Sequence record: PV946933.1
Reading direction: 5' to 3' (one strand)
Length of the DNA: 64,000 bases
From: a phage
Part shown: piece after piece, positions 20,834 to 31,055 of the stretch
How positions within the stretch are numbered: the first letter of the stretch is position 1
How the letters are laid out: every line of letters starts with the position of its first letter
Position numbers and translations under genes: made by a program
Notes under the pieces: model-generated
Told to the model about the DNA's origin: nothing
Database searches by the model: none
Seen by the model: only the letters and a program-made list of their open reading frames with translations

Positions 20834-21530
<697 letters not shown>

Positions 21531-21542
21531 TTTCACAAAGTT

Positions 21543-21572
21543 GTTTACACGTTGATGAGGTAGTGATACTAT
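21543..21572 (+). promoter_or_regulatory. T4-type early promoter (GTTTAC, 18 nt, TACTAT) with 9-bp inverted repeat bracketing the -10
   Basis: GTTTAC...TGATACTAT; GATGAGGTA/TACCTCATC inverted repeat flanks the -10. Confidence 0.5.
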
Positions 21573-21602
21573 TACCTCATCAAAATTAATTAGGAAAATA
21601 AA

Positions 21603-21875
21603 ATGAAAACTTTCAAAGAGTTTATCGTTGAATCTGCTCTTAATGAAGAAGTAAAAATTAGCAAATCTGTTAAGACTATGATTGATAATATAAATCATCT
21701 TTATAACATTGATTTGACGAATCATGTAACGTTAGGAAATAAACGAAACTTTTTTGTATTTGATATTTCAGAACTTGATCAGAATCAAATTAATAATATT
21801 GAACGCTTTGCTAATGAAAAAGGTCTGCGTCACGAGACGGCTGGTTATAAAAAATATGCAATTTATTTAAAATAA
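21603..21875 (+). CDS. Internal protein (IPI-locus) with capsid-targeting leader
   Basis: ORF track 90 aa; N-terminus MKTFKEFIVE matches the T4 internal-protein capsid-targeting sequence; position of ipI next to 57B. Confidence 0.7.
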   Translation: MKTFKEFIVESALNEEVKISKSVKTMIDNINHLYNIDLTNHVTLGNKRNFFVFDISELDQNQINNIERFANEKGLRHETAGYKKYAIYLK

Positions 21876-21878
21876 ATT

Positions 21879-21908
21879 GTTTACACGGTGGTTTAGTTGT
21901 GATACTAT
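21879..21908 (+). promoter_or_regulatory. T4-type early promoter
   Basis: GTTTAC, 18 nt, TACTAT upstream of next IP gene. Confidence 0.5.
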
Positions 21909-21942
21909 TACCCTATCAAAACAAAACTAAATGGAAATCAAA

Positions 21943-22251
21943 ATGAAAACATATCAAGAATTTATCAATGAAGCGGCTGCACCAAAGACATTCGTTATTA
22001 ATACTCAGGCGAGTCTTGATGATGAGTACGCGGAGGCAATTCTGAGGTCACTTGCTAAGAACGGCGTTGAAGTAATCGCCTCGGACTTTAAGAAAGGGGC
22101 TTCCGAGATGTTTATTTCTATAACTAAAGGATCTAAAGCTAAAATCAAATCATCATTCGGTGTTGCTCGTACCGATCAAATCGACAATCATGACTTTAAA
22201 CAAACTGGTGTTAAACGGCAGAACACAATTGCATCACGCGGAATAAAATAG
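21943..22251 (+). CDS. Internal protein (IPII-like) with capsid-targeting leader
   Basis: ORF track frame, start at second ATG giving MKTYQEFINE leader; paralogous to ORF 30753..31055. Confidence 0.7.
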   Translation: MKTYQEFINEAAAPKTFVINTQASLDDEYAEAILRSLAKNGVEVIASDFKKGASEMFISITKGSKAKIKSSFGVARTDQIDNHDFKQTGVKRQNTIASRGIK

Positions 22252-22263
22252 TTTATAAAAACA

Positions 22264-22293
22264 GTTTACTTTTAGATGGGGTAGTGATACTAT
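22264..22293 (+). promoter_or_regulatory. T4-type early promoter with inverted repeat bracketing -10
   Basis: GTTTAC, 18 nt, TACTAT; GATGGGGTA/TACCCTATC imperfect inverted repeat. Confidence 0.5.
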
Positions 22294-22321
22294 TACCCTA
22301 TCAACTACTGAGGAGAATAAA

Positions 22322-22507
22322 ATGAAACGTTGTGAATTAATTCGAAATGTTGCTATTGCAATTTCTGCTTCCGCTTTTAGTTTTTCAATGTTTGTTGGAT
22401 TTATATGCGGATTATTAACTACAGCAGAAAATGTTTTTTCACTTGTAGTAGCATTTTTAATTGGTTTAATCGCTATTGTTATGGATAAAATTTCTAAAGG
22501 TGAATAG
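22322..22507 (+). CDS. Small hydrophobic membrane protein
   Basis: ORF track 61 aa; two predicted TM helices; GAGGAG RBS upstream. Confidence 0.5.
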   Translation: MKRCELIRNVAIAISASAFSFSMFVGFICGLLTTAENVFSLVVAFLIGLIAIVMDKISKGE

Positions 22508-22508
22508 A

Positions 22509-22886
22509 ATGTATAAAGTGTACGCGGATTATCAGGCTAATCCATCTAAAAAGCCAAGCTGTCAAATAGGATGGGCTCATGATACTTTGCTTGAAGCAGT
22601 AGATGCTGCTCAAAAATTGGGATATAAATATGTAGAGATTGTTCAACTACCATCAGGAAAAGTTATTACTCTTGAAGAGTTCAATAATATTAAACCAAAC
22701 TTTTTACTTTTTGCAGGTGATAATTATTATCCTCGTGGTGGATATGATGATTTGATTGCGTATGCTGAAACAGAAGATGAATTACGCCAAATTATTGAAG
22801 ACAATAAATCAAAACGATTTGGCGATAGTTTTGACTGGTGGCAAATCGTAAATGCCCATACACATACTATTGTTGATAAAGGTTAA
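22509..22886 (+). CDS. Hypothetical protein
   Basis: ORF track frame 22476..22886; start moved to ATG after AAAGGTGA RBS (MYKVYADYQ). Confidence 0.55.
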   Translation: MYKVYADYQANPSKKPSCQIGWAHDTLLEAVDAAQKLGYKYVEIVQLPSGKVITLEEFNNIKPNFLLFAGDNYYPRGGYDDLIAYAETEDELRQIIEDNKSKRFGDSFDWWQIVNAHTHTIVDKG

Positions 22887-22888
22887 TA

Positions 22889-23176
22889 ATGATTCTTTAT
22901 GCGAAAGTATCATCCATTGAAAATGGATATAAATATGATCAAGAAGCAGCTAAAGCCTTGATTGATGATTATGGCATTTTAACATGTTTTGAAGTTGAAA
23001 AGGTTTACATTGACCGTTCATCTTCTCAAGTTAAATTAGTGAAGGAAGACCGTAAATTTAATACAGTAAATTTTGATTTCTTTATTGAAACAGAAAAAGG
23101 TCCTCTTGAATATGATATTTTCAAGAATCCTTTGGGTCTTGAATGCATCGTAAATATGTATTATCATAAATGGTAA
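22889..23176 (+). CDS. Hypothetical protein
   Basis: ORF track 95 aa; tightly packed after previous gene. Confidence 0.5.
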   Translation: MILYAKVSSIENGYKYDQEAAKALIDDYGILTCFEVEKVYIDRSSSQVKLVKEDRKFNTVNFDFFIETEKGPLEYDIFKNPLGLECIVNMYYHKW

Positions 23177-23273
23177 ATATGCTTTAAGAATTATTTGTTA
23201 TTATTAACTCATATCGCACTGATTAATACCCTCTATCATCAAGGGTTCTTGTTTGAGAGCCTTTGTTAATAAT

Positions 23274-23346
23274 TGGGAATTAGCCAAGTTGGTAAGGCAT
23301 AGCATTTTGACTGCTAGATGCAAAGGTTCGAGTCCTTTATTCCCAG
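23274..23346 (+). tRNA. tRNA-Gln (anticodon UUG)
   Basis: Cloverleaf readable: acceptor tgggaat/attccca, anticodon stem tagca/tgcta, loop ttTTGac, T-arm GGTTCGAGTCC; CCA not encoded. Confidence 0.8.
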
Positions 23347-23347
23347 C

Positions 23348-23434
23348 GCGAGAATGGTCAAATTGGTAAAGGCACAGCACTTAAAATGCTGCGGAATGAT
23401 TTCCTTGTGGGTTCGAGTCCCACTTCTCGCACCA
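23348..23434 (+). tRNA. tRNA-Leu (anticodon UAA)
   Basis: Acceptor gcgagaa/ttctcgc, loop ctTAAaa, long variable arm, T-arm GGTTCGAGTCC, CCA encoded. Confidence 0.8.
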
Positions 23435-23439
23435 AATTT

Positions 23440-23513
<74 letters not shown>

Positions 23514-23523
23514 ATTTAATTTA

Positions 23524-23597
23524 CTCCGTGTAGCTCAGTTTGGTAGAGCGCCTGATTTGGGATCAGGAGGTCCAAGGTTCAAATCCTTGTATGGAGA
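23524..23597 (+). tRNA. tRNA-Pro (anticodon UGG)
   Basis: Acceptor ctccgtg/tatggag (two GU pairs), anticodon stem cctga/tcagg, loop ttTGGga, T-arm GGTTCAAATCC; CCA not encoded. Confidence 0.75.
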
Positions 23598-23599
23598 CT

Positions 23600-23689
23600 G
23601 GAGGCGTGGCAGAGTGGTTTAATGCACCGGTCTTGAAAACCGGCAGTCGCTCCGGCGACTCATAGGTTCAAATCCTATCGCCTCCGCCA
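23600..23689 (+). tRNA. tRNA-Ser (anticodon UGA)
   Basis: Acceptor ggaggcg/cgcctcc, anticodon stem ccggt/accgg, loop ctTGAaa, long variable arm, CCA encoded. Confidence 0.8.
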
Positions 23690-23694
23690 GTTTT

Positions 23695-23770
23695 GCTGAT
23701 TTAGCTCAGTAGGTAGAGCAACTCACTTGTAATGAGAAGGTCGGCGGTTCGATTCCGTCAATCAGCACCA
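23695..23770 (+). tRNA. tRNA-Thr (anticodon UGU)
   Basis: Acceptor gctgatt/aatcagc, loop ctTGTaa, T-arm GGTTCGATTCC, CCA encoded. Confidence 0.8.
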
Positions 23771-23771
23771 A

Positions 23772-23846
23772 GGCCCTGTAGCTGGAAGGTTCAAGCAAGC
23801 GACTCATAATCGCCAGATGGTGGTTCAATTCCACCCAGGGCCACCA
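23772..23846 (+). tRNA. tRNA with CAU anticodon (most likely tRNA-Ile read as AUA after C34 modification, as in T4; tRNA-Met not excluded)
   Basis: Acceptor ggccctg/cagggcc, loop ctCATaa, T-arm GGTTCAATTCC, CCA encoded. Confidence 0.7.
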
Positions 23847-23859
23847 AATTAAGAATTAA

Positions 23860-23946
23860 GGGGAGTTATCCCGTAGAGGTAGCGGTGTGGACTGTAAATC
23901 CATTGTCATTGCGACTCGGGTGGTTCGACTCCATCACTCCCCACCA
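23860..23946 (+). tRNA. tRNA-Tyr (anticodon GUA), class II with long variable arm
   Basis: Acceptor ggggagt/actcccc, anticodon stem gtgga/tccat, loop ctGTAaa, variable stem-loop, T-loop ttcgact, CCA encoded. Confidence 0.7.
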
Positions 23947-23950
23947 ATTT

Positions 23951-24025
23951 GGATGTGTAGCTCAATGGCAGAGCGATCGCCTGTTAAGCGATTGGTTATA
24001 GGTTCGAATCCTATCACGTCCGCCA
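23951..24025 (+). tRNA. tRNA-Asn (anticodon GUU)
   Basis: Acceptor ggatgtg/cacgtcc, D-stem gctc/gagc, anticodon stem atcgc/gcgat, loop ctGTTaa, T-arm GGTTCGAATCC, CCA encoded. Confidence 0.75.
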
Positions 24026-24029
24026 AATC

Positions 24030-24105
24030 CGAGGCATAGCTCAGAAGGAAGAGCAAGGACCTTCTAAGTCCTGGGTCGTAGGTTCGATCCCTACTGCCTC
24101 GACCA
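24030..24105 (+). tRNA. tRNA-Arg (anticodon UCU)
   Basis: Acceptor cgaggca/tgcctcg, anticodon stem aggac/gtcct, loop ctTCTaa, T-arm GGTTCGATCC, CCA encoded. Confidence 0.8.
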
Positions 24106-24121
24106 ATTAAGTGAGGAAAAT

Positions 24122-24472
24122 ATGAAAGGTAATGTTTATTTAGTAGTTCATGATTTAACATTCTATTTTAATCACAATGACACTGTTATTTCTGAACGTG
24201 TAATTAATTTACTTTATCAGCATGCAGATTATGTTTATGTCGAAAACGAATACGGTCATTGGCAATTTCTCAAAAATCGTTCATTTGGTTTAGATGGTTA
24301 CGAATACTTTGAACGTAAAGACCTTTTAGATAAAATTCCATTATCTACACAATATCAAAATCACAAGTCTTTATATAAATGCCGTCCAATTCGAAATGCT
24401 GAATCTGCGTATGAAGTAATTGATTTATGGCGTAAACGTCGTGGACAGGTTGATGCTTTAAAAGAATACTAA
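24122..24472 (+). CDS. Hypothetical protein
   Basis: ORF track 116 aa; GAGGAAAA RBS directly after tRNA-Arg. Confidence 0.5.
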   Translation: MKGNVYLVVHDLTFYFNHNDTVISERVINLLYQHADYVYVENEYGHWQFLKNRSFGLDGYEYFERKDLLDKIPLSTQYQNHKSLYKCRPIRNAESAYEVIDLWRKRRGQVDALKEY

Positions 24473-24570
24473 GAAACCGGGTCGCTATCGGTAAGTCGTC
24501 GGACTGATGTTCCCTGGAGTATAGTTTCTCCCACAGTTTTACTGTGTTCTGATTCTTTACTATCACAGCA

Positions 24571-24727
24571 GAAACGGCGCATCAAATTATCGATTCGAGG
24601 AAATATCTTTGCCGTAAGCCGAGTAGCGTTTTTGACGGAACGTTCGGATATGGTCGAGATATGGCCTTTTAAAAATATTAAGTAGCGTCAACTGCTTAAT
24701 AACCGGGTTCGAATCCCGGCGTTTCGT
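24571..24727 (+). ncRNA. Candidate stable structured RNA with tRNA-like 3' domain (possible analogue of T4 stable RNAs C/D); boundaries approximate
   Basis: About 380 nt without a credible ORF; T-arm-like CCGGGTTCGAATCCCGG followed by CGTTTCG able to pair with GAAACG about 150 nt upstream; several local hairpins; strong terminator follows. Confidence 0.25.
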
Positions 24728-24779
24728 ACAAACACTTGCCTTAGCAGGTGGAACCCCGACAAGGTTGCCGCAAGGCTTA

Positions 24780-24806
24780 GCCCCGACCGAAAGGTTGGGG
24801 CTTTTT
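24780..24806 (+). terminator. Rho-independent terminator (GCCCCGACC-GAAA-GGTTGGGGC + T5)
   Basis: GC-rich stem, GAAA loop and U-run; near-identical copy at 25338-25364. Confidence 0.6.
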
Positions 24807-24808
24807 AG

Positions 24809-24816
24809 TATAAATA
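24809..24816 (+). promoter_or_regulatory. Candidate late promoter TATAAATA upstream of internal-protein gene
   Basis: Exact TATAAATA about 40 nt upstream of ATG 24856. Confidence 0.4.
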
Positions 24817-24855
24817 TAGTAGTGTATTAAATCACGAATTAAAACAGGAAATAAG

Positions 24856-25329
24856 ATGAAATCATATGCTCAATTTTTAAATGAAGTGGTGTTAAATGAA
24901 GCATCCGCTTCAGATGTTCGCGCTGTAGCAACTGCTGCTATTAAAGCTGGTAAATATTCTTATAAAGATGCTTCTGACGAATCCCGGTACAAGTTCTACG
25001 ACGATATGAGAGCTGAAGGCTTTGTGGGTAACTATGTTACCACCGCCTGGAAAAGTCTGGTTGCTACTGGTGCGGCTTTCGAAAAACCTTCCGGTAAACC
25101 TGCTCCTAAAGCAGATCCTAAAGCTGCACAAGAAAAAAATATTGTTAAAGGAATTATCGCTAAATATGAAGCTATCCTTAAAGAGCTTTTAGTAATTAAA
25201 ACCGAAGGCCAAAAATTAGCCCGTGCCTATAGTTTCAAAGATAATCCACATGCTCATGACCTAGAGTATGTTGAAGATCTCCAAAAAATCATCAAAGACC
25301 GCATTTGGTCTGCTAAACAAATCAAATAA
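24856..25329 (+). CDS. Internal-protein-like protein with capsid-targeting leader
   Basis: ORF track 157 aa; N-terminus MKSYAQFLNE fits CTS pattern; flanked by repeated terminator hairpins. Confidence 0.65.
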   Translation: MKSYAQFLNEVVLNEASASDVRAVATAAIKAGKYSYKDASDESRYKFYDDMRAEGFVGNYVTTAWKSLVATGAAFEKPSGKPAPKADPKAAQEKNIVKGIIAKYEAILKELLVIKTEGQKLARAYSFKDNPHAHDLEYVEDLQKIIKDRIWSAKQIK

Positions 25330-25337
25330 CATTCTTA

Positions 25338-25364
25338 GCCTCGACCGAAAGGTTGGGGCTTTTT
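25338..25364 (+). terminator. Rho-independent terminator (GCCTCGACC-GAAA-GGTTGGGGC + T5)
   Basis: Near-identical repeat of the hairpin at 24780-24806. Confidence 0.6.
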
Positions 25365-25454
25365 AGTTTGAATCGCATAGAGAATGCTGTTACGGATAAT
25401 AACAAAGTAATAAATAATTAATAACTGACCGATAAATTATTTCAAGGATTTTAA

Positions 25455-26018
25455 ATGAAAACCTATGCCGAATTTTTAACCGAAGCAGCAAAATTACCAT
25501 CTGAAGCAGAACTTACTAAAGTATTCTTCCAATTGGACCCAAAAGACCGTGGCGATTTTCTTAAGTGGAAAGCTAAAGCTATTGAAATGTATAACATCGA
25601 TAATAGTTCTTTTACGATGAGTCAAGAAAATAAATTCAATAAAGCATTTTTCAAAATTTCTAAGAAATTAGCATCTGGCGCTCAGGTTCCTAAATCTGCA
25701 TTAGCTACTCCTGAACGTGCACCTGTTAAAATTTCTAAGAATATGTTCGACACTAAAAAATACGTTAATGCTTTGAATAAAGCTCTTGATGCATTGGATG
25801 ATGCAAAGAAGGCAGCCCGTGATCTTCAAGACGTGTACACCGATTTTGATCGTAAAACTAAAGGTTCTATTTCAAATAGCGAACGCAATAGTGTAAGTGT
25901 TTATTCTGATAGCCTTGATGTTCTTGGCGATGCGTATACTGAAATTAAAAATCGTATTAACACCGCATCTAAGCTAAAAGCTGCCGTAGAAGCTATAATA
26001 ACTAAACTAGGTAAATAA
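25455..26018 (+). CDS. Internal-protein-like protein with capsid-targeting leader
   Basis: ORF track 187 aa; N-terminus MKTYAEFLTE fits CTS pattern. Confidence 0.65.
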   Translation: MKTYAEFLTEAAKLPSEAELTKVFFQLDPKDRGDFLKWKAKAIEMYNIDNSSFTMSQENKFNKAFFKISKKLASGAQVPKSALATPERAPVKISKNMFDTKKYVNALNKALDALDDAKKAARDLQDVYTDFDRKTKGSISNSERNSVSVYSDSLDVLGDAYTEIKNRINTASKLKAAVEAIITKLGK

Positions 26019-26026
26019 TTTTAAAT

Positions 26027-26051
26027 CCCTATCTAAATGATAGGGCTTTTT
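26027..26051 (+). terminator. Rho-independent terminator (CCCTATC-TAAAT-GATAGGG + T5)
   Basis: 7-bp stem, 5-nt loop, followed by CTTTTT. Confidence 0.55.
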
Positions 26052-26185
26052 GATATCTAGGCCTTTCTGGACCTCTCTAAGAATCATTTAGTTTCTACCC
26101 TTTATAATATATTATCCTATCCTTTAATTGCCCCTCCCTGTCCTAGAATTCCCTAAAACTTTTTAAAAAATTTTTTCACAAAACT

Positions 26186-26215
26186 GTTTACATCCCCGTT
26201 CTTCCATGGTACTAT
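26186..26215 (+). promoter_or_regulatory. T4-type early promoter with conserved leader (shared with promoters at 40538 and 41977)
   Basis: TTTTCACAAAA-GTTTAC...TGGTACTATACAACTATCAACT conserved in three copies. Confidence 0.5.
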
Positions 26216-26259
26216 ACAACTATCAACTACTGATACAGAAAAACAACTTGGAGAATGAA

Positions 26260-26523
26260 ATGGATAATTACGGCGAACTGTTCAACTTCTTTATGAAATG
26301 CGTTTCAGAAGATTTCGGTCGTACAGTGAATGATATTAAAGTCATCGGTCCTGACCATCCGATGTTTGAAACTTACGCAGTAATGGGTAATGAAGACGGT
26401 CAGTGGTATACTGTAAAAGTTGTGATTAATATGTTCACTGCTGAAGGTTATGTTAAACTGTCTTCTAAAGTTTATCATGATAATGATGAAATCGCAGAAG
26501 AATATTTCAATAATATGAAATAA
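26260..26523 (+). CDS. Hypothetical protein
   Basis: ORF track frame 26206..26523; start moved downstream of the promoter -10 to ATG after GGAGAA RBS (MDNYGELF). Confidence 0.55.
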   Translation: MDNYGELFNFFMKCVSEDFGRTVNDIKVIGPDHPMFETYAVMGNEDGQWYTVKVVINMFTAEGYVKLSSKVYHDNDEIAEEYFNNMK

Positions 26524-26591
26524 TTGTGTACAAACACCAAGGACGGTGTTATTATAGACTTATCAAAACAAACACAGAAACGGAGAAATAA

Positions 26592-26768
26592 ATGACTACT
26601 TTAATTATTTGGTTCGACGAAAATGAAGAAACATACTGCGTGAACATTGATGAAAGTCCAATGCCTGACTTTGAATCTTCAGATAAGAAGTCGGTTATAT
26701 CTTGGGCTGAAGGTTATAAAGCAGCAAAAGGCGATGTTAAAATAGTTTATAAACTCTTTGAAATATAA
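26592..26768 (+). CDS. Small hypothetical protein (58 aa, below ORF-track cutoff)
   Basis: Hand-translated: MTTLIIWFDENEETYCVNIDESPMPDFESSDKK...; ACGGAGAAATAA RBS; coordinates +/-1. Confidence 0.35.
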   Translation: MTTLIIWFDENEETYCVNIDESPMPDFESSDKKSVISWAEGYKAAKGDVKIVYKLFEI

Positions 26769-26811
26769 TATTCTCACGGATTTTAAATCTTAATCAACCT
26801 AAGGAAATACT

Positions 26812-27405
26812 ATGAACACACTGAAGAAAATTGTTGAGTTTATTCGCACTAAACTTGGTTCTGCTATGGCTAAGAATCTATCTGTTGAAGAACAGTATAC
26901 TGCTGCAGCAGCAAAACTGCTTGATAAAATTAAAGACCTAAAAACTGCTTCTGTTAAATCTATTAATGAAGAAAAACGTATTCGTGAACTTGTTATCGAA
27001 AAGAATCGACAAGCCGAATCAAAAGAGCGTGAAATTCGTAAACTTCTTTCCGAAGGTCAAGATGTAACATTGCACGCTAAACTCGGTTTACTATATCGTC
27101 GAACAGCTGAGCAGTTGACTACTAAAGCTGATGGTTATGCTGAAATGCGAATTGAAATCGCCAAGAAAGTAGTTGAGTTAGATGATGCTCGCCAAGAACT
27201 TGCAGTTAAATTGGAATATATTCGTGAAACTCGTGCGGCAAATGCCCTTGGAATTAGTACTGCCGATGATGTAGTTGAAATTGCAGCATTGACTAAGGTT
27301 GATATTGAAGATACCCTTGCTCGAGTTGAAACCTTTAACGGTAATATTTCTGGGGTTGAAACCACTTCTGCCGATGTTCAGGAATACATTAATTCTCTGA
27401 AATAA
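26812..27405 (+). CDS. Hypothetical alpha-helical coiled-coil protein
   Basis: ORF track 197 aa; heptad-rich, charged. Confidence 0.55.
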
Positions 27406-29799: not shown

Positions 29800-30117
29800 A
29801 TGAAAACGTTTAAAGAATTTATTGCAGAATCTGCCCAAGGACAACGTGTAGAAGGCGGTTATATCTGGATTGAACAAGTTGAGCCGCCAAGTCGCACTTC
29901 TACAGGTAAATGGAAAATCACTGTTGATGGTCCTGGTGGTAAACGTAGGACTCTTAAAGAAATTAACGGGTACTATGAAGAAGCTCTTTCTGACGCGGGT
30001 ACTTATATGATGCAAATCATGATTAAAAACCCAGAAAATCGTTTTGCGGCTAGAGTTTTCCGCCGTATTGGAAATAAGCTTTATGATGCATATTCTAAAA
30101 ACTTCCCTAAAGAATAA
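29800..30117 (+). CDS. Internal-protein-like protein with capsid-targeting leader
   Basis: ORF track 105 aa; N-terminus MKTFKEFIAE. Confidence 0.65.
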   Translation: MKTFKEFIAESAQGQRVEGGYIWIEQVEPPSRTSTGKWKITVDGPGGKRRTLKEINGYYEEALSDAGTYMMQIMIKNPENRFAARVFRRIGNKLYDAYSKNFPKE

Positions 30118-30132
30118 AAATAAAGGAAATAC

Positions 30133-30711
30133 ATGAAAACCTATAAAGAATTTATCGCTGAAGCTTCTGTAGTAAAGGCCAAAGGCATTAATAAAGATGA
30201 GTGGACTTATCGTGGCGGAAACGGCTTTGACCCTAAAACTGCTCCACTTGAACGATATCTAGCCACAAAAGCTTCTGATTTTAAAGCCTTCGCCTGGGAA
30301 GGACTTCGCTGGCGTAACGATCTAAATATTGAAGTTGACGGACTTAAATTTGCTCATATTGAAGATGTTGTTGCTAGTAACTTAGACGCAGCTTTTGTTA
30401 AAGCCGACAGTGATCTTCGTCGCTGGAATTTAAAACTGTTCTCTAAACAAAAAGGCCCGAAGTTTGTGCCTAAAGCCGGTAAATGGGTCATTGATAATAA
30501 ATTAGCTAAGGCTGTCAACTACGCTGGTCTTGAATTCGCCAAGCACAAATCATCATGGAAAGGTCTTGATGCAATGGCTTTCCGTAAAGAATTTGCCGAT
30601 GTTATGGCTAAAGGCGGCTTTAAGGCAGAAATAGATACCTCTAAAGGTACGTTTAAGGACGCTAATGTTCAGTACGCTTATGCCGTTGCTAATGCAGCCC
30701 GTGGTAATTAA
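30133..30711 (+). CDS. Internal protein III-like protein with capsid-targeting leader
   Basis: ORF track 192 aa; N-terminus MKTYKEFIAE; size and position (next to e) as T4 ipIII. Confidence 0.65.
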   Translation: MKTYKEFIAEASVVKAKGINKDEWTYRGGNGFDPKTAPLERYLATKASDFKAFAWEGLRWRNDLNIEVDGLKFAHIEDVVASNLDAAFVKADSDLRRWNLKLFSKQKGPKFVPKAGKWVIDNKLAKAVNYAGLEFAKHKSSWKGLDAMAFRKEFADVMAKGGFKAEIDTSKGTFKDANVQYAYAVANAARGN

Positions 30712-30713
30712 TA

Positions 30714-30731
30714 AGGCCTATACTTAGGCCT
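30714..30731 (+). terminator. Hairpin AGGCCTA-TACT-TAGGCCT after IPIII-like gene
   Basis: 7-bp perfect stem directly after stop codon, followed by ATTT. Confidence 0.4.
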
Positions 30732-30752
30732 ATTTACATTTAAAGGAAACAT

Positions 30753-31055
30753 ATGAAAACATTTAAAGAATTTATCACTGAAGCAAAAGCCCCGAAGGTT
30801 TTTCAAATTTGTTCACAAGGAAATTTAGACAAAGAATACGTTGACGCCATCGTAGCAAGCATTGTCAACCAAGGCGTGCAAGTAGATGCAGTTGAATTTA
30901 CCAAAGGCCCTACCTTTAATATCGTTGTATCTAAGGGTTCTTTGGCTAAAATTAAAAAGGCCTGGGGTGTTATGAGAGCTTACCAAGTAGATGATTCTGC
31001 TCCCGGGCCGAAAGTACGAATGAATACCCTTAAGGGAGGCCGTGAATACGTTTAG
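30753..31055 (+). CDS. Internal protein II-like protein with capsid-targeting leader
   Basis: ORF track 100 aa; N-terminus MKTFKEFITE; paralogue of 21943..22251. Confidence 0.65.
   Translation: MKTFKEFITEAKAPKVFQICSQGNLDKEYVDAIVASIVNQGVQVDAVEFTKGPTFNIVVSKGSLAKIKKAWGVMRAYQVDDSAPGPKVRMNTLKGGREYV

Follow-up and report, generated by a model that had tools for sequence, protein, structure and literature searches.

Near-identical terminator repeats bracket a candidate late-gene module behind the small stable RNA genes of T4-like phages

The sequence analyzed here is a 64,000-nucleotide (nt) stretch of phage DNA from record PV946933.1, referred to below as the window. Downstream of its small stable RNA genes rnaD and rnaC, a 34-nt terminator-like repeat occurs twice (T1 and T2), and the two copies bracket one small open reading frame (ORF), gene 1, behind which a second ORF, gene 2, is located. 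Our principal reading, to which we give a probability of about 0.7, is that these terminators insulate transcription and also provide short homology for the recombinational gain, loss, and stacking of modules. The interest of the locus lies mainly in what the modules encode, an unannotated third set of candidate injected proteins. Positions are listed in Table 1.

The repeat reads CTTAGCC(C/T)CGACCGAAAGGTTGGGGCTTTTTAGT, and its copies at 24776-24809 and 25334-25367 are 558 bp apart from start to start. An initial annotation, made from the letters alone, had described a pair of near-identical 34-nt repeats, each with a GC stem, a GAAA loop, and a U-run; it placed the second copy exactly and the first one base too low (24775-24808). 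The copies agree at 33 of 34 positions, the sole mismatch being C to T at 25341. A search tolerating three mismatches gave no further copy on either strand of the 64-kb window, and 100 dinucleotide-preserving shuffles gave none. Both consist of the same 10-bp stem (6-7 G-C pairs), a GAAA loop, and UUUUU, and the mismatch converts a C-G pair to U-G, so the stem of the second copy stays paired. Folded as 34-mers, copy 1 reaches -20.3 and copy 2 -17.3 kcal/mol (z = -5.2 and -4.8, respectively); none of 200 shuffles was as stable, and a terminator scan also flags both. T2 begins 4 nt past the stop codon of gene 1, and T1 follows rnaC and its trailer, which places each at the 3' end of a transcription unit. 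The element therefore has the GC-rich stem-loop, U run, 3' location, and evolutionary retention of the stem that are typical of rho-independent terminators, and in the G50 record the site homologous to T1 is annotated as a terminator. Across 26 variants, 86% of stem cells are paired; one pair changes from C-G to G-C in five sequences, several C-G pairs become U-G, and the TTCC variant leaves its two innermost variable pairs unpaired. Because many of these variants were gathered with a pattern that fixes the 3' arm, ascertainment explains part of that arm's invariance. A 71-nt extension proposed by a repeat finder (76% identity) was rejected, as beyond the 34-nt core it contains only AT-rich sequence whose similarity is roughly that of chance.

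Comparison with T4 indicates which of the two copies is resident. In T4, rnaC is followed by a 57-nt trailer, the same terminator (TTAGCCCCGACCGAAAGGTTGGGGCTTTTT), then immediately GGTATCTAAGCCTTTCCAGACC..., and then e.8, with neither gene present. Copy 1 is 97% identical to this rnaC terminator and occupies the same position. Since T4 has the terminator without the genes, copy 1 belongs to the tRNA/rnaD/rnaC unit as its resident terminator and lies outside any inserted element. Relative to T4, two inserted modules separate the e.8 flank of the window from the T-run of the rnaC terminator. The right edge of the second is formed by a third, different, and weaker terminator-like hairpin (T3), whose 3' end GGGCTTTTTG(A/G)TATCTAGG equals the 3' end and flank of the terminator in phages without gene 2, and after which GATATCTAGGCCTTTCTGGACC... 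starts.

The region matched 732 phage records, nearly all of them Tequatrovirus (T4-like phages with Escherichia, Shigella, and Yersinia hosts), the best at 97-98% identity. Sixty evenly spaced records of these 732 were classified with query 24600-26330, and about 25 loci were read in detail. Junction-specific searches were confounded, since matching pieces separated by as much as about 557 nt are joined and a junction interrupted by the 558-bp module can then count as covered; the class counts are for this reason taken from the 60-record sample. About 10 of the 60 carry both genes (full query coverage, record span of about 1720 bp), and three carry gene 2 only, with 558 bp missing (70% coverage, about 1170 bp; Shfl2-type). 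About 21 carry gene 1 only, with approximately 690 bp missing (61% coverage, about 1040 bp; G8-type). Five, including T4T, T6, and RB3, are empty, both units being missing (29% coverage, 484 bp), and the rest are more distant phages with partial coverage and varying spans. The record spans of the classes differ by 558 and about 690 bp, which are the lengths of the modules. Coverage of the query reaches 80% or more in 126 records of the whole collection, and the class with both genes comprised 126-129 records across searches. The terminator of T4, T6, and RB3 has nothing behind it; this T4-type empty state, about 8% of the sample, is a minority and plausibly represents a loss.

Every junction that was examined falls at the T-run of the terminator (T). 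Its left context is either the rnaC trailer (A) or the end of gene 1 (B), and its right context is TATAAATA with the gene 1 leader (X), the gene 2 leader, AGTTTGAATC... (Y), or the e.8 flank (Z). A-T-X occurs in the window, G50, ZN18, L004, L012, and F26, and B-T-Y in the window, G50, ZN18, L006, L012, F26, and ST2. A-T-Y is found in Shfl2, a gene 2-only phage from which the 558-bp unit is absent to the base; B-T-Z in G8 and L004, with gene 1 only; and A-T-Z in T4 and also in G2285 (Mosigvirus). Five of the six possible left-right combinations thus exist, and the terminator is the joint in all five. The alignment across T4-like genomes that the initial annotation had called for bears out its expectation, in that the repeat is conserved, the enclosed or following content varies, and the breakpoints fall at the terminator in the loci examined. 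The ST2 record itself (OM982647.1, 'Escherichia phage ST2', L020) has a taxonomy line of Guernseyvirinae; Kagunavirus, yet its 171-kb sequence has the T4-like order of tRNA, rnaC, gene 1, gene 2, and e.8, and the record is therefore probably misclassified.

These observations are consistent with the following mechanism. The 34-nt element would be a rho-independent terminator, the first copy of which ends the tRNA/rnaD/rnaC transcription unit. Behind it would sit a self-contained late module of 558 bp, with TATAAATA, a ribosome-binding site, a 157-amino acid (aa) ORF with a leader, and its own copy of the terminator; a second module would contain the 187-aa gene and end in a different hairpin. 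T1 would keep early and middle tRNA transcripts out of the late gene, and T2 would end the late transcript. The 34-bp near-identical direct repeats, together with very active homologous recombination, could allow modules to loop out, duplicate, stack, or be exchanged while the phage replicates or in mixed infections. A single unequal crossover in the terminator, between a gene 1-only and a gene 2-only genome, would yield the state with both genes seen in the window and the empty state seen in T4. Termination, late transcription, recombination at the repeat, and packaging and injection of the proteins are all inferred from the sequence. The initial annotation had regarded the repeats as the footprint of cassette exchange. 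Gain, loss, and replacement at the terminator agree with that view; the upstream copy is resident rather than mobile, and within Tequatrovirus only presence or absence and allelic mosaicism of gene 1 are seen, replacement by a different gene being confined to comparisons across genera.

Several points weigh against recombination at the repeat. Double crossovers in the long conserved flanks (rnaC and e.8) would also move whole alleles without the 34-nt repeat. The right boundary of the gene 2 module shares only about 10 nt with the terminator (GGGCTTTTT), so the long repeat is not at every junction. Identity between phages falls inside gene 1 (86-89%) and not at T1, the leader after T1 being still 95-98% identical in several phages; some exchange therefore takes place within the gene. 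The resemblance of the two copies within a genome, described below, comes from a test confounded by shared ancestry. The 20-nt core of the hairpin also occurs in unrelated phages, and hairpin likeness alone is therefore weak evidence of shared origin; part of the likeness may be convergence. Finally, bare TATAAATA is not enriched in the window (11 found against 10.5 expected).

One alternative is that two ordinary terminators resemble each other by descent or constraint, and that the differences in occupancy arise from exchange in the rnaC and e.8 flanks. The upstream copy is indeed the ancestral operon terminator, the hairpin core recurs in unrelated phages, a sibling hairpin stands at the uvsY/uvsW junction, and the flanks are 93-98% identical between phages, enough for recombination themselves. 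However, the 33/34 identity reaches unpaired bases (CTT before the stem and AGT after it), and flank exchange can move alleles but cannot make the four occupancy states from one another. The junctions are moreover exactly as expected of crossovers within the terminator, and lineage-specific variants are common to both copies within genomes. On balance we consider this explanation improbable.

The likeness of the copies within genomes was quantified on the 24-nt stem-loop. Within a genome, T1 and T2 differ on average at 1.4 positions; between T1 of one genome and T2 of another the figure is 2.9 (permutation p = 0.0006, uncorrected for phylogeny). Inner stem variants match within genomes, with GACC/GACC in six genomes and TTCC/TTCC in ST2 and p000y, and a compensatory GGCCC..GGGCC form is present in both copies in Dhakavirus. 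This pattern would fit gene conversion between the copies or repeated integration at the terminator, either of which is recombination at the repeat. Block inheritance of T1, gene 1, and T2 accounts for part of the signal, but not for the same double change in both copies.

A sibling hairpin was observed elsewhere, between convergent genes on the uvsY side and uvsW (L060 1120-1160; in T4, L067 3440-3475). It reads GGCCCTTCC-TTTTT-GGTTGGGCC in T4 and GGCCCTTCC-GAAA-GGTTGGGCC in Dhakaviruses, where its stem and loop are identical to those of the two copies at the rnaC site. Such identity suggests that dispersed terminators may be homogenized within a genome. The exact 20-mer CCGAAAGGTTGGGGCTTTTT, which lies inside GCCCC(G/T)GCC-GAAA-GGTTGGGGC, was also observed once each in unrelated viral contigs, several of them of about 38 kb (L021, L022, L025, L027, L029-L031, L036, L037, L047-L049, L051, L054, L057, L061, and L063). 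The surroundings of the 20-mer are common to these contigs and unlike the T4-like context; it represents either convergence on a favored terminator or an old shared element.

The same site is occupied in other genera. The Dhakavirus phages JS98 (L010) and IME281 (L008) carry a related terminator T' (AGGCCCTTCCGAAAGGTTGGGCCT), TATAAATA, an unrelated 184-aa gene, T' again, TATAAATA, and a 205-aa leader-bearing gene. The 184-aa protein (DUF7338, PF24027) has a membrane-associated look and no leader. IME08 (L065) is without exactly the 624-bp bracketed unit, and a single T' joins the rnaC-type trailer to the leader of the 205-aa gene. In QL01 and vB_EcoM_005 the order is T', gene 1, a shortened hairpin (GCCCC-GTCT-GGGGC), the 184-aa gene, and T'. 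The contents of the bracket therefore differ between phages. In Mosigvirus, HX01 and ZQ3 have the terminator, TATAAATA, and a leader-like gene of 206 or 208 aa, p000y has gene 1 between two terminators with a TTAC loop, and the site is empty in G2285. In Gaprivervirus, VR20 carries the terminator, TATAAATA, a 184-aa gene, and another hairpin, and in DCP80 the terminator is followed directly by the sequence that comes after the second hairpin in VR20. In Jiaodavirus, Klebsiella phage KP1 has, at the same syntenic place, a different hairpin (GCCCCGTC-TTCG-GACGGGGC) with the same junction GGGGCTTTTTAGTATAAATA. Several genera carry such genes here, and the site behind the small-RNA terminator therefore appears to have harbored late, mostly leader-bearing accessory genes widely and for a long time. 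The initial annotation would have been contradicted by related phages with the same gene but no repeats. This was found in part, as the gene 1 relatives of QL01, vB_EcoM_005, and KP1 end in a hairpin that is shorter or different; the gene thus does not require the 34-nt identity.

Two side observations concern the RNA genes at this site. In IME08 (300-500), rnaD runs directly into the trailer and terminator, and rnaC is apparently missing. In VR20 (L024, 3599-3982, minus strand), the place of rnaC is taken by a 127-aa gene that has its own TATAAATA and whose product starts like a leader (MLTYAEFLNRN); it is followed by the same trailer and terminator as rnaC elsewhere. Because of this swap, trailer and terminator are taken to act as one 3' module of about 85 nt.

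As the initial annotation had noted, TATAAATA comes directly after the upstream copy; with the coordinates corrected, this intergenic motif overlaps the copy by one base. A promoter scan of the + strand from 24776 to 24856 returned no -35/-10 (sigma-70-type) candidate, and the late TATAAATA is the only recognizable motif there. The junction of terminator and TATAAATA was found in Tequatrovirus, Mosigvirus, Dhakavirus, Gaprivervirus, and Jiaodavirus loci, and the form GGGGCTTTTT(A/T)GTATAAATA recurs in five genera. TATAAATA is accordingly credible as a putative late promoter through its position and its conservation in other phages, not through its frequency. Upstream of gene 2, AATAAATA may be a weak late promoter; the same octamer stands in for TATAAATA at the equivalent place 5' of gene 1 in L006, L007, p000y, and ST2.

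Table 1. Features at and around the terminator repeats (window coordinates)
Feature	Position	Strand	Basis or remark
rnaD-like small stable RNA gene (species 2 RNA homologue)	24471..24583	+	Approximate ends, by eye against T4 annotation and sequence
rnaC-like small stable RNA gene (species 1 RNA homologue)	24590..24728	+	Approximate ends; aligned to T4 rnaC, annotated 70908-71046
Structured 3' trailer, rnaC to terminator	24729..24775	+	Predicted small hairpins; travels with the terminator in other genera
Predicted terminator repeat copy 1 (T1)	24776..24809	+	Stem 24779-24788 / 24793-24802, GAAA loop 24789-24792, T-run 24802-24806
Putative T4-type late promoter motif TATAAATA	24809..24816	+	Overlaps last base of copy 1; 39 nt 5' of gene 1 ATG
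Shine-Dalgarno AGGA of gene 1	24846..24849	+	Read from sequence
Gene 1, 157 aa, leader MKSYAQFLNE, phrog_2280 (unknown function)	24856..25329	+	ORF and leader search
Predicted terminator repeat copy 2 (T2)	25334..25367	+	Stem 25337-25346 / 25351-25360, U-G for C-G
AATAAATA, possible weak late promoter of gene 2	25409..25416	+	38 nt 5' of gene 2 ATG; inferred
Gene 2, 187 aa, leader MKTYAEFLTE, phrog_2280	25455..26018	+	Second leader-bearing ORF, after copy 2
Third, different, weaker terminator-like hairpin (T3)	26027..26051	+	CCCTATC-TAAAT-GATAGGG, then C and TTTTT
Conserved flank, early-type promoter 26187-26215	26052..26259	+	In T4 directly after the rnaC terminator; leads into e.8
e.8	26260-26523		3' of conserved flank

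Elements of a similar kind have been described in T4-like phages. PeSL and PmSL are terminator stem-loops fused to early or middle promoters that flank variable ORFs (Arbiol et al. 2010, PMC2839356; Comeau et al. 2014, PMC4122927). They coincide with indels between RB49 and phi1, PST and T4, and nt-1 and KVP40, and mini-circle excision has been shown (PMC2839356, PMC4122927). The present element shares with PeSL the series of stem-loop, promoter (putative here), Shine-Dalgarno sequence, and start codon (in the window, T1, TATAAATA at 24809, AGGA at 24846, and ATG at 24856), the repetition around small non-essential ORFs in plastic regions, the coincidence with indels between relatives, and homologous recombination as the proposed mechanism; mini-circle excision is a feature of PeSL. 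It differs in that TATAAATA is of the late type, neither an early sigma-70-like -35/-10 promoter nor a middle Mot promoter, and in that the conserved repeat is the terminator alone (34 nt) and not the promoter. One copy is also the terminator of a stable-RNA operon, and the stem is unlike the PST/T4 consensus stem-loops (AGNA-loop-TCNT). The phrase 'late promoter' is absent from the main texts of PMC2839356 and PMC4122927. By analogy, the element may be regarded as a late-promoter counterpart of PeSL. Late-gene modules and the terminator of a stable-RNA operon would then also come under the PeSL idea, in which regulatory elements serve at the same time as recombination handles.

Other known systems are similar in part. 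The terminator of the T4 species 1 RNA (rnaC), at the end of the tRNA cluster, is the same element as copy 1 in the same position; T4 has one copy of it, with the e.8 flank next, whereas here it is duplicated behind an inserted late gene. In the laboratory, T4 amplifies or deletes segments, including ipIII, via short repeats, with effects on host range (Srikant et al. 2022, bioRxiv 10.1101/2022.04.14.488369). The gain and loss of segments between short direct repeats, with loss of an internal-protein gene, is common to both cases, but those were laboratory events at microhomologies of a few bases and the present ones are natural alleles at a 34-nt functional element. Like integrons, the locus has single promoter-dependent ORFs bounded by a conserved hairpin element and stacked at one site, an analogy that the PeSL authors also drew (PMC2839356). 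Unlike integrons, it has no integrase and no attI, each module would have its own promoter, and the hairpin is a predicted transcription terminator.

A dedicated enzyme could in principle move the modules, with the hairpin as its site-specific recombination or nuclease target (an attC-like or homing site). Breakpoints are tightly limited to the hairpin and T-run across genera, and the tRNA region of T4 has the homing endonuclease SegB, which, as cited in PMC4122927, is reported to drive preferential inheritance of that region. Against this, no integrase, recombinase, or homing endonuclease gene lies in or beside the locus, where the neighbors are tRNAs, a 116-aa ORF, rnaD/rnaC, and e.8, and the PeSL authors found no dedicated recombinase in RB49 and phi1 (PMC2839356). 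We regard this possibility as highly improbable. A bolder reading is that the junction of terminator and late promoter is a portable, integron-like docking site, with late-expressed modules of promoter, ORF, and terminator undergoing mini-circle excision, re-insertion at any terminator copy, and movement between T-even genera. The phrog_2280 proteins would then form a third, unrecognized set of injected counter-defense proteins, their N-domain tracking host restriction as Ip1-3 track GmrSD variants. We hold this extension to be rather unlikely in full.

The proteins of the two modules were recognized by their N-terminal sequence. The leader motif of internal proteins is about 10 residues long (MKT[YF]xEF[IL]xE) and ends in a prohead-protease site (L/I-x-E). 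A search of the window for this capsid-targeting leader returned seven genes in three places: beside 57B (21603 and 21943), between e and denV (29800, 30133, and 30753), and genes 1 and 2. The five genes at the classical loci belong to PHROG families annotated as internal head or virion protein or to related families. Gene 1, which the initial annotation had correctly delimited as a leader-bearing ORF at 24856..25329, fits the motif with two conservative departures (S3 and Q6), and its alleles elsewhere begin MKTYNEFLNE. Genes 1 and 2 fit the sequence definition of internal proteins by virtue of the leader, the sole basis of this putative label, and their location is outside the two described loci. 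The gene 1 product is probably a protein injected with the DNA.

In the gene 1 protein, a Pro/Ala/Lys linker connects a helical N-terminal domain, which is variable, to a C-terminal helical hairpin, which is conserved. Across 11 alleles, residues 80-157 hardly change, even between genera, whereas residues 11-80 sort into three classes; variation in the leader does not follow these classes. Its nucleotide identity is 86-89% between phages whose flanks and gene 2 are 95-100% identical. An AlphaFold model built from an 8-sequence alignment (pLDDT 73, pTM 0.47) predicts, at moderate confidence, three helices in the N-domain, disorder in the Pro/Ala/Lys linker, and a helical hairpin. Comparison of this model with BFVD and the PDB by Foldseek returned its own homologues and nothing else below E = 0.6. 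A large protein search with gene 1 gave only 11 clusters, all unnamed or 'hypothetical'. By tblastn, gene 1 matched 512 phage records, and the 60 matches listed were all 'hypothetical protein' or a placeholder, or had no named feature. Pfam gave nothing for gene 1 or its 205-aa relative, and for gene 2 only a sub-threshold match to Cytochrome b562.

Two variants of gene 1 were observed in passing. In F26 (L014, 858-1193 and 2258/2608), gene 1 is frameshifted to 111 aa and about 350 bp including the start of e.8 are duplicated, so that F26 is a case of decay and local duplication at the rnaC-e.8 site. In KP1 (L066, 1983-2516), a 177-aa leader-bearing protein combines a gene 1-type N-domain (63% over residues 13-75) with a different C-terminal region, and this fusion therefore indicates domain shuffling inside the family.

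Compared directly, genes 1 and 2 have the leader alone in common. Each is 25-27% identical, over its length, to the 205-aa Dhakavirus protein of phrog_2280, and the two are therefore distant relatives. This relationship raises the possibility that the locus is a decayed tandem duplication of gene plus terminator, with genes 1 and 2 as paralogues and the repeats as leftovers. Both genes belong to phrog_2280, have the same layout of leader, N-domain, basic linker, and helical C-terminus, and match the same Dhakavirus protein. However, the near-identical pair T1/T2 encloses gene 1 alone, gene 2 is followed by a different hairpin, and T1 is present in T4 without any gene. The proteins share just the 10-residue leader, a divergence far older than the 97% identity of the repeat, and some phages have gene 1 alone and others gene 2 alone. 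The placement of T1 and T2, the T4 state, and the divergence of the proteins largely refute tandem duplication as the source of the repeat, and we consider it very unlikely.

Of all phage products, internal proteins arrive first in the host cytoplasm. Ip1, Ip2, and Ip3 of T4 each block a different GmrSD-type restriction enzyme (PMC12373910). In the accounts given by PMC2839356, PMC4122927, and PMC12373910, the internal-protein (IP) loci of T-even phages (Repoila et al. 1994) are ipI (57B-trna.4) and ipII/ipIII (e-denV), and Silas 2025 refers to 'the two Ip loci in T-even phages'. Because these papers name only two, rnaC-e.8 would be a third internal-protein locus, although its genes may have been mentioned earlier, e.g., among '>30 IP variants'. 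Two loci are described because T4, the reference phage, is empty at this candidate third site. The present site resembles the IP loci in having small genes with a common N-terminal capsid-targeting leader, variable number, order, and identity of the genes, and conserved regulatory motifs in the flanks. It differs from them in position, the classical loci of the window being at 21603-22251 and 29800-31055, and in its flanks, as those of ipI are early-promoter motifs only 72-77% alike. That leader genes shuffle like cassettes at conserved regulatory motifs was already known in 1994, and the class of mechanism in 2010. At least 512 sequenced relatives have a leader-bearing gene at the rnaC-e.8 site, and the three sharply different N-domain classes of gene 1 on a near-invariant C-terminal half provide a testable list of candidate injected anti-defense proteins.

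The classical loci of the window were also inspected. At ipI (21523-22304), the leader genes 21603-21875 (90 aa) and 21943-22251 (102 aa) are each flanked on both sides by a 61-nt early-promoter motif, GTTTAC...TGATACTAT, present in three copies that are 72-77% alike; a similar one precedes e.8 at 26187-26233. These motifs look like the PeSL-like elements attributed to Repoila et al. (1994). The second locus (29800-31055) contains three tandem leader genes, of 105 aa (phrog_3966), 192 aa (ipIII-like), and 100 aa (ipII-like), separated by gaps of only 15 and 41 nt; the corresponding T4 locus has two genes.

Read along its + strand, the window follows the T4 minus strand. Gene order near the site is trna.4, trna.3, and trna.2 homologues, tRNAs, the 116-aa ORF, rnaD/rnaC, the gene 1 and gene 2 modules, e.8, e.7, e.6, and e.5. 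The segment 24480-24775 is 93% identical to T4 rnaD/rnaC across 98% of its length. A permissive Rfam search of 22000-27000 returned tRNAs and weak chance matches only, with no family over the terminator, trailer, or rnaC/rnaD, and a scan of IMG/VR with the e.8 protein gave only 10 loci. The tRNA cluster (23274-24105) comprises ten genes, including Met, Tyr, and Asn, without the segB homing endonuclease gene; the cluster of T4 has eight tRNAs with segB inserted, and in G50 an eleventh tRNA is tRNA-His. The 116-aa ORF (24122-24472; phrog_3355, unknown function) lies between tRNA-Arg and rnaD, with its stop codon abutting the start of rnaD. Its place is vacant in T4, and the ORF is found in G50, Shfl2, F26, and others.

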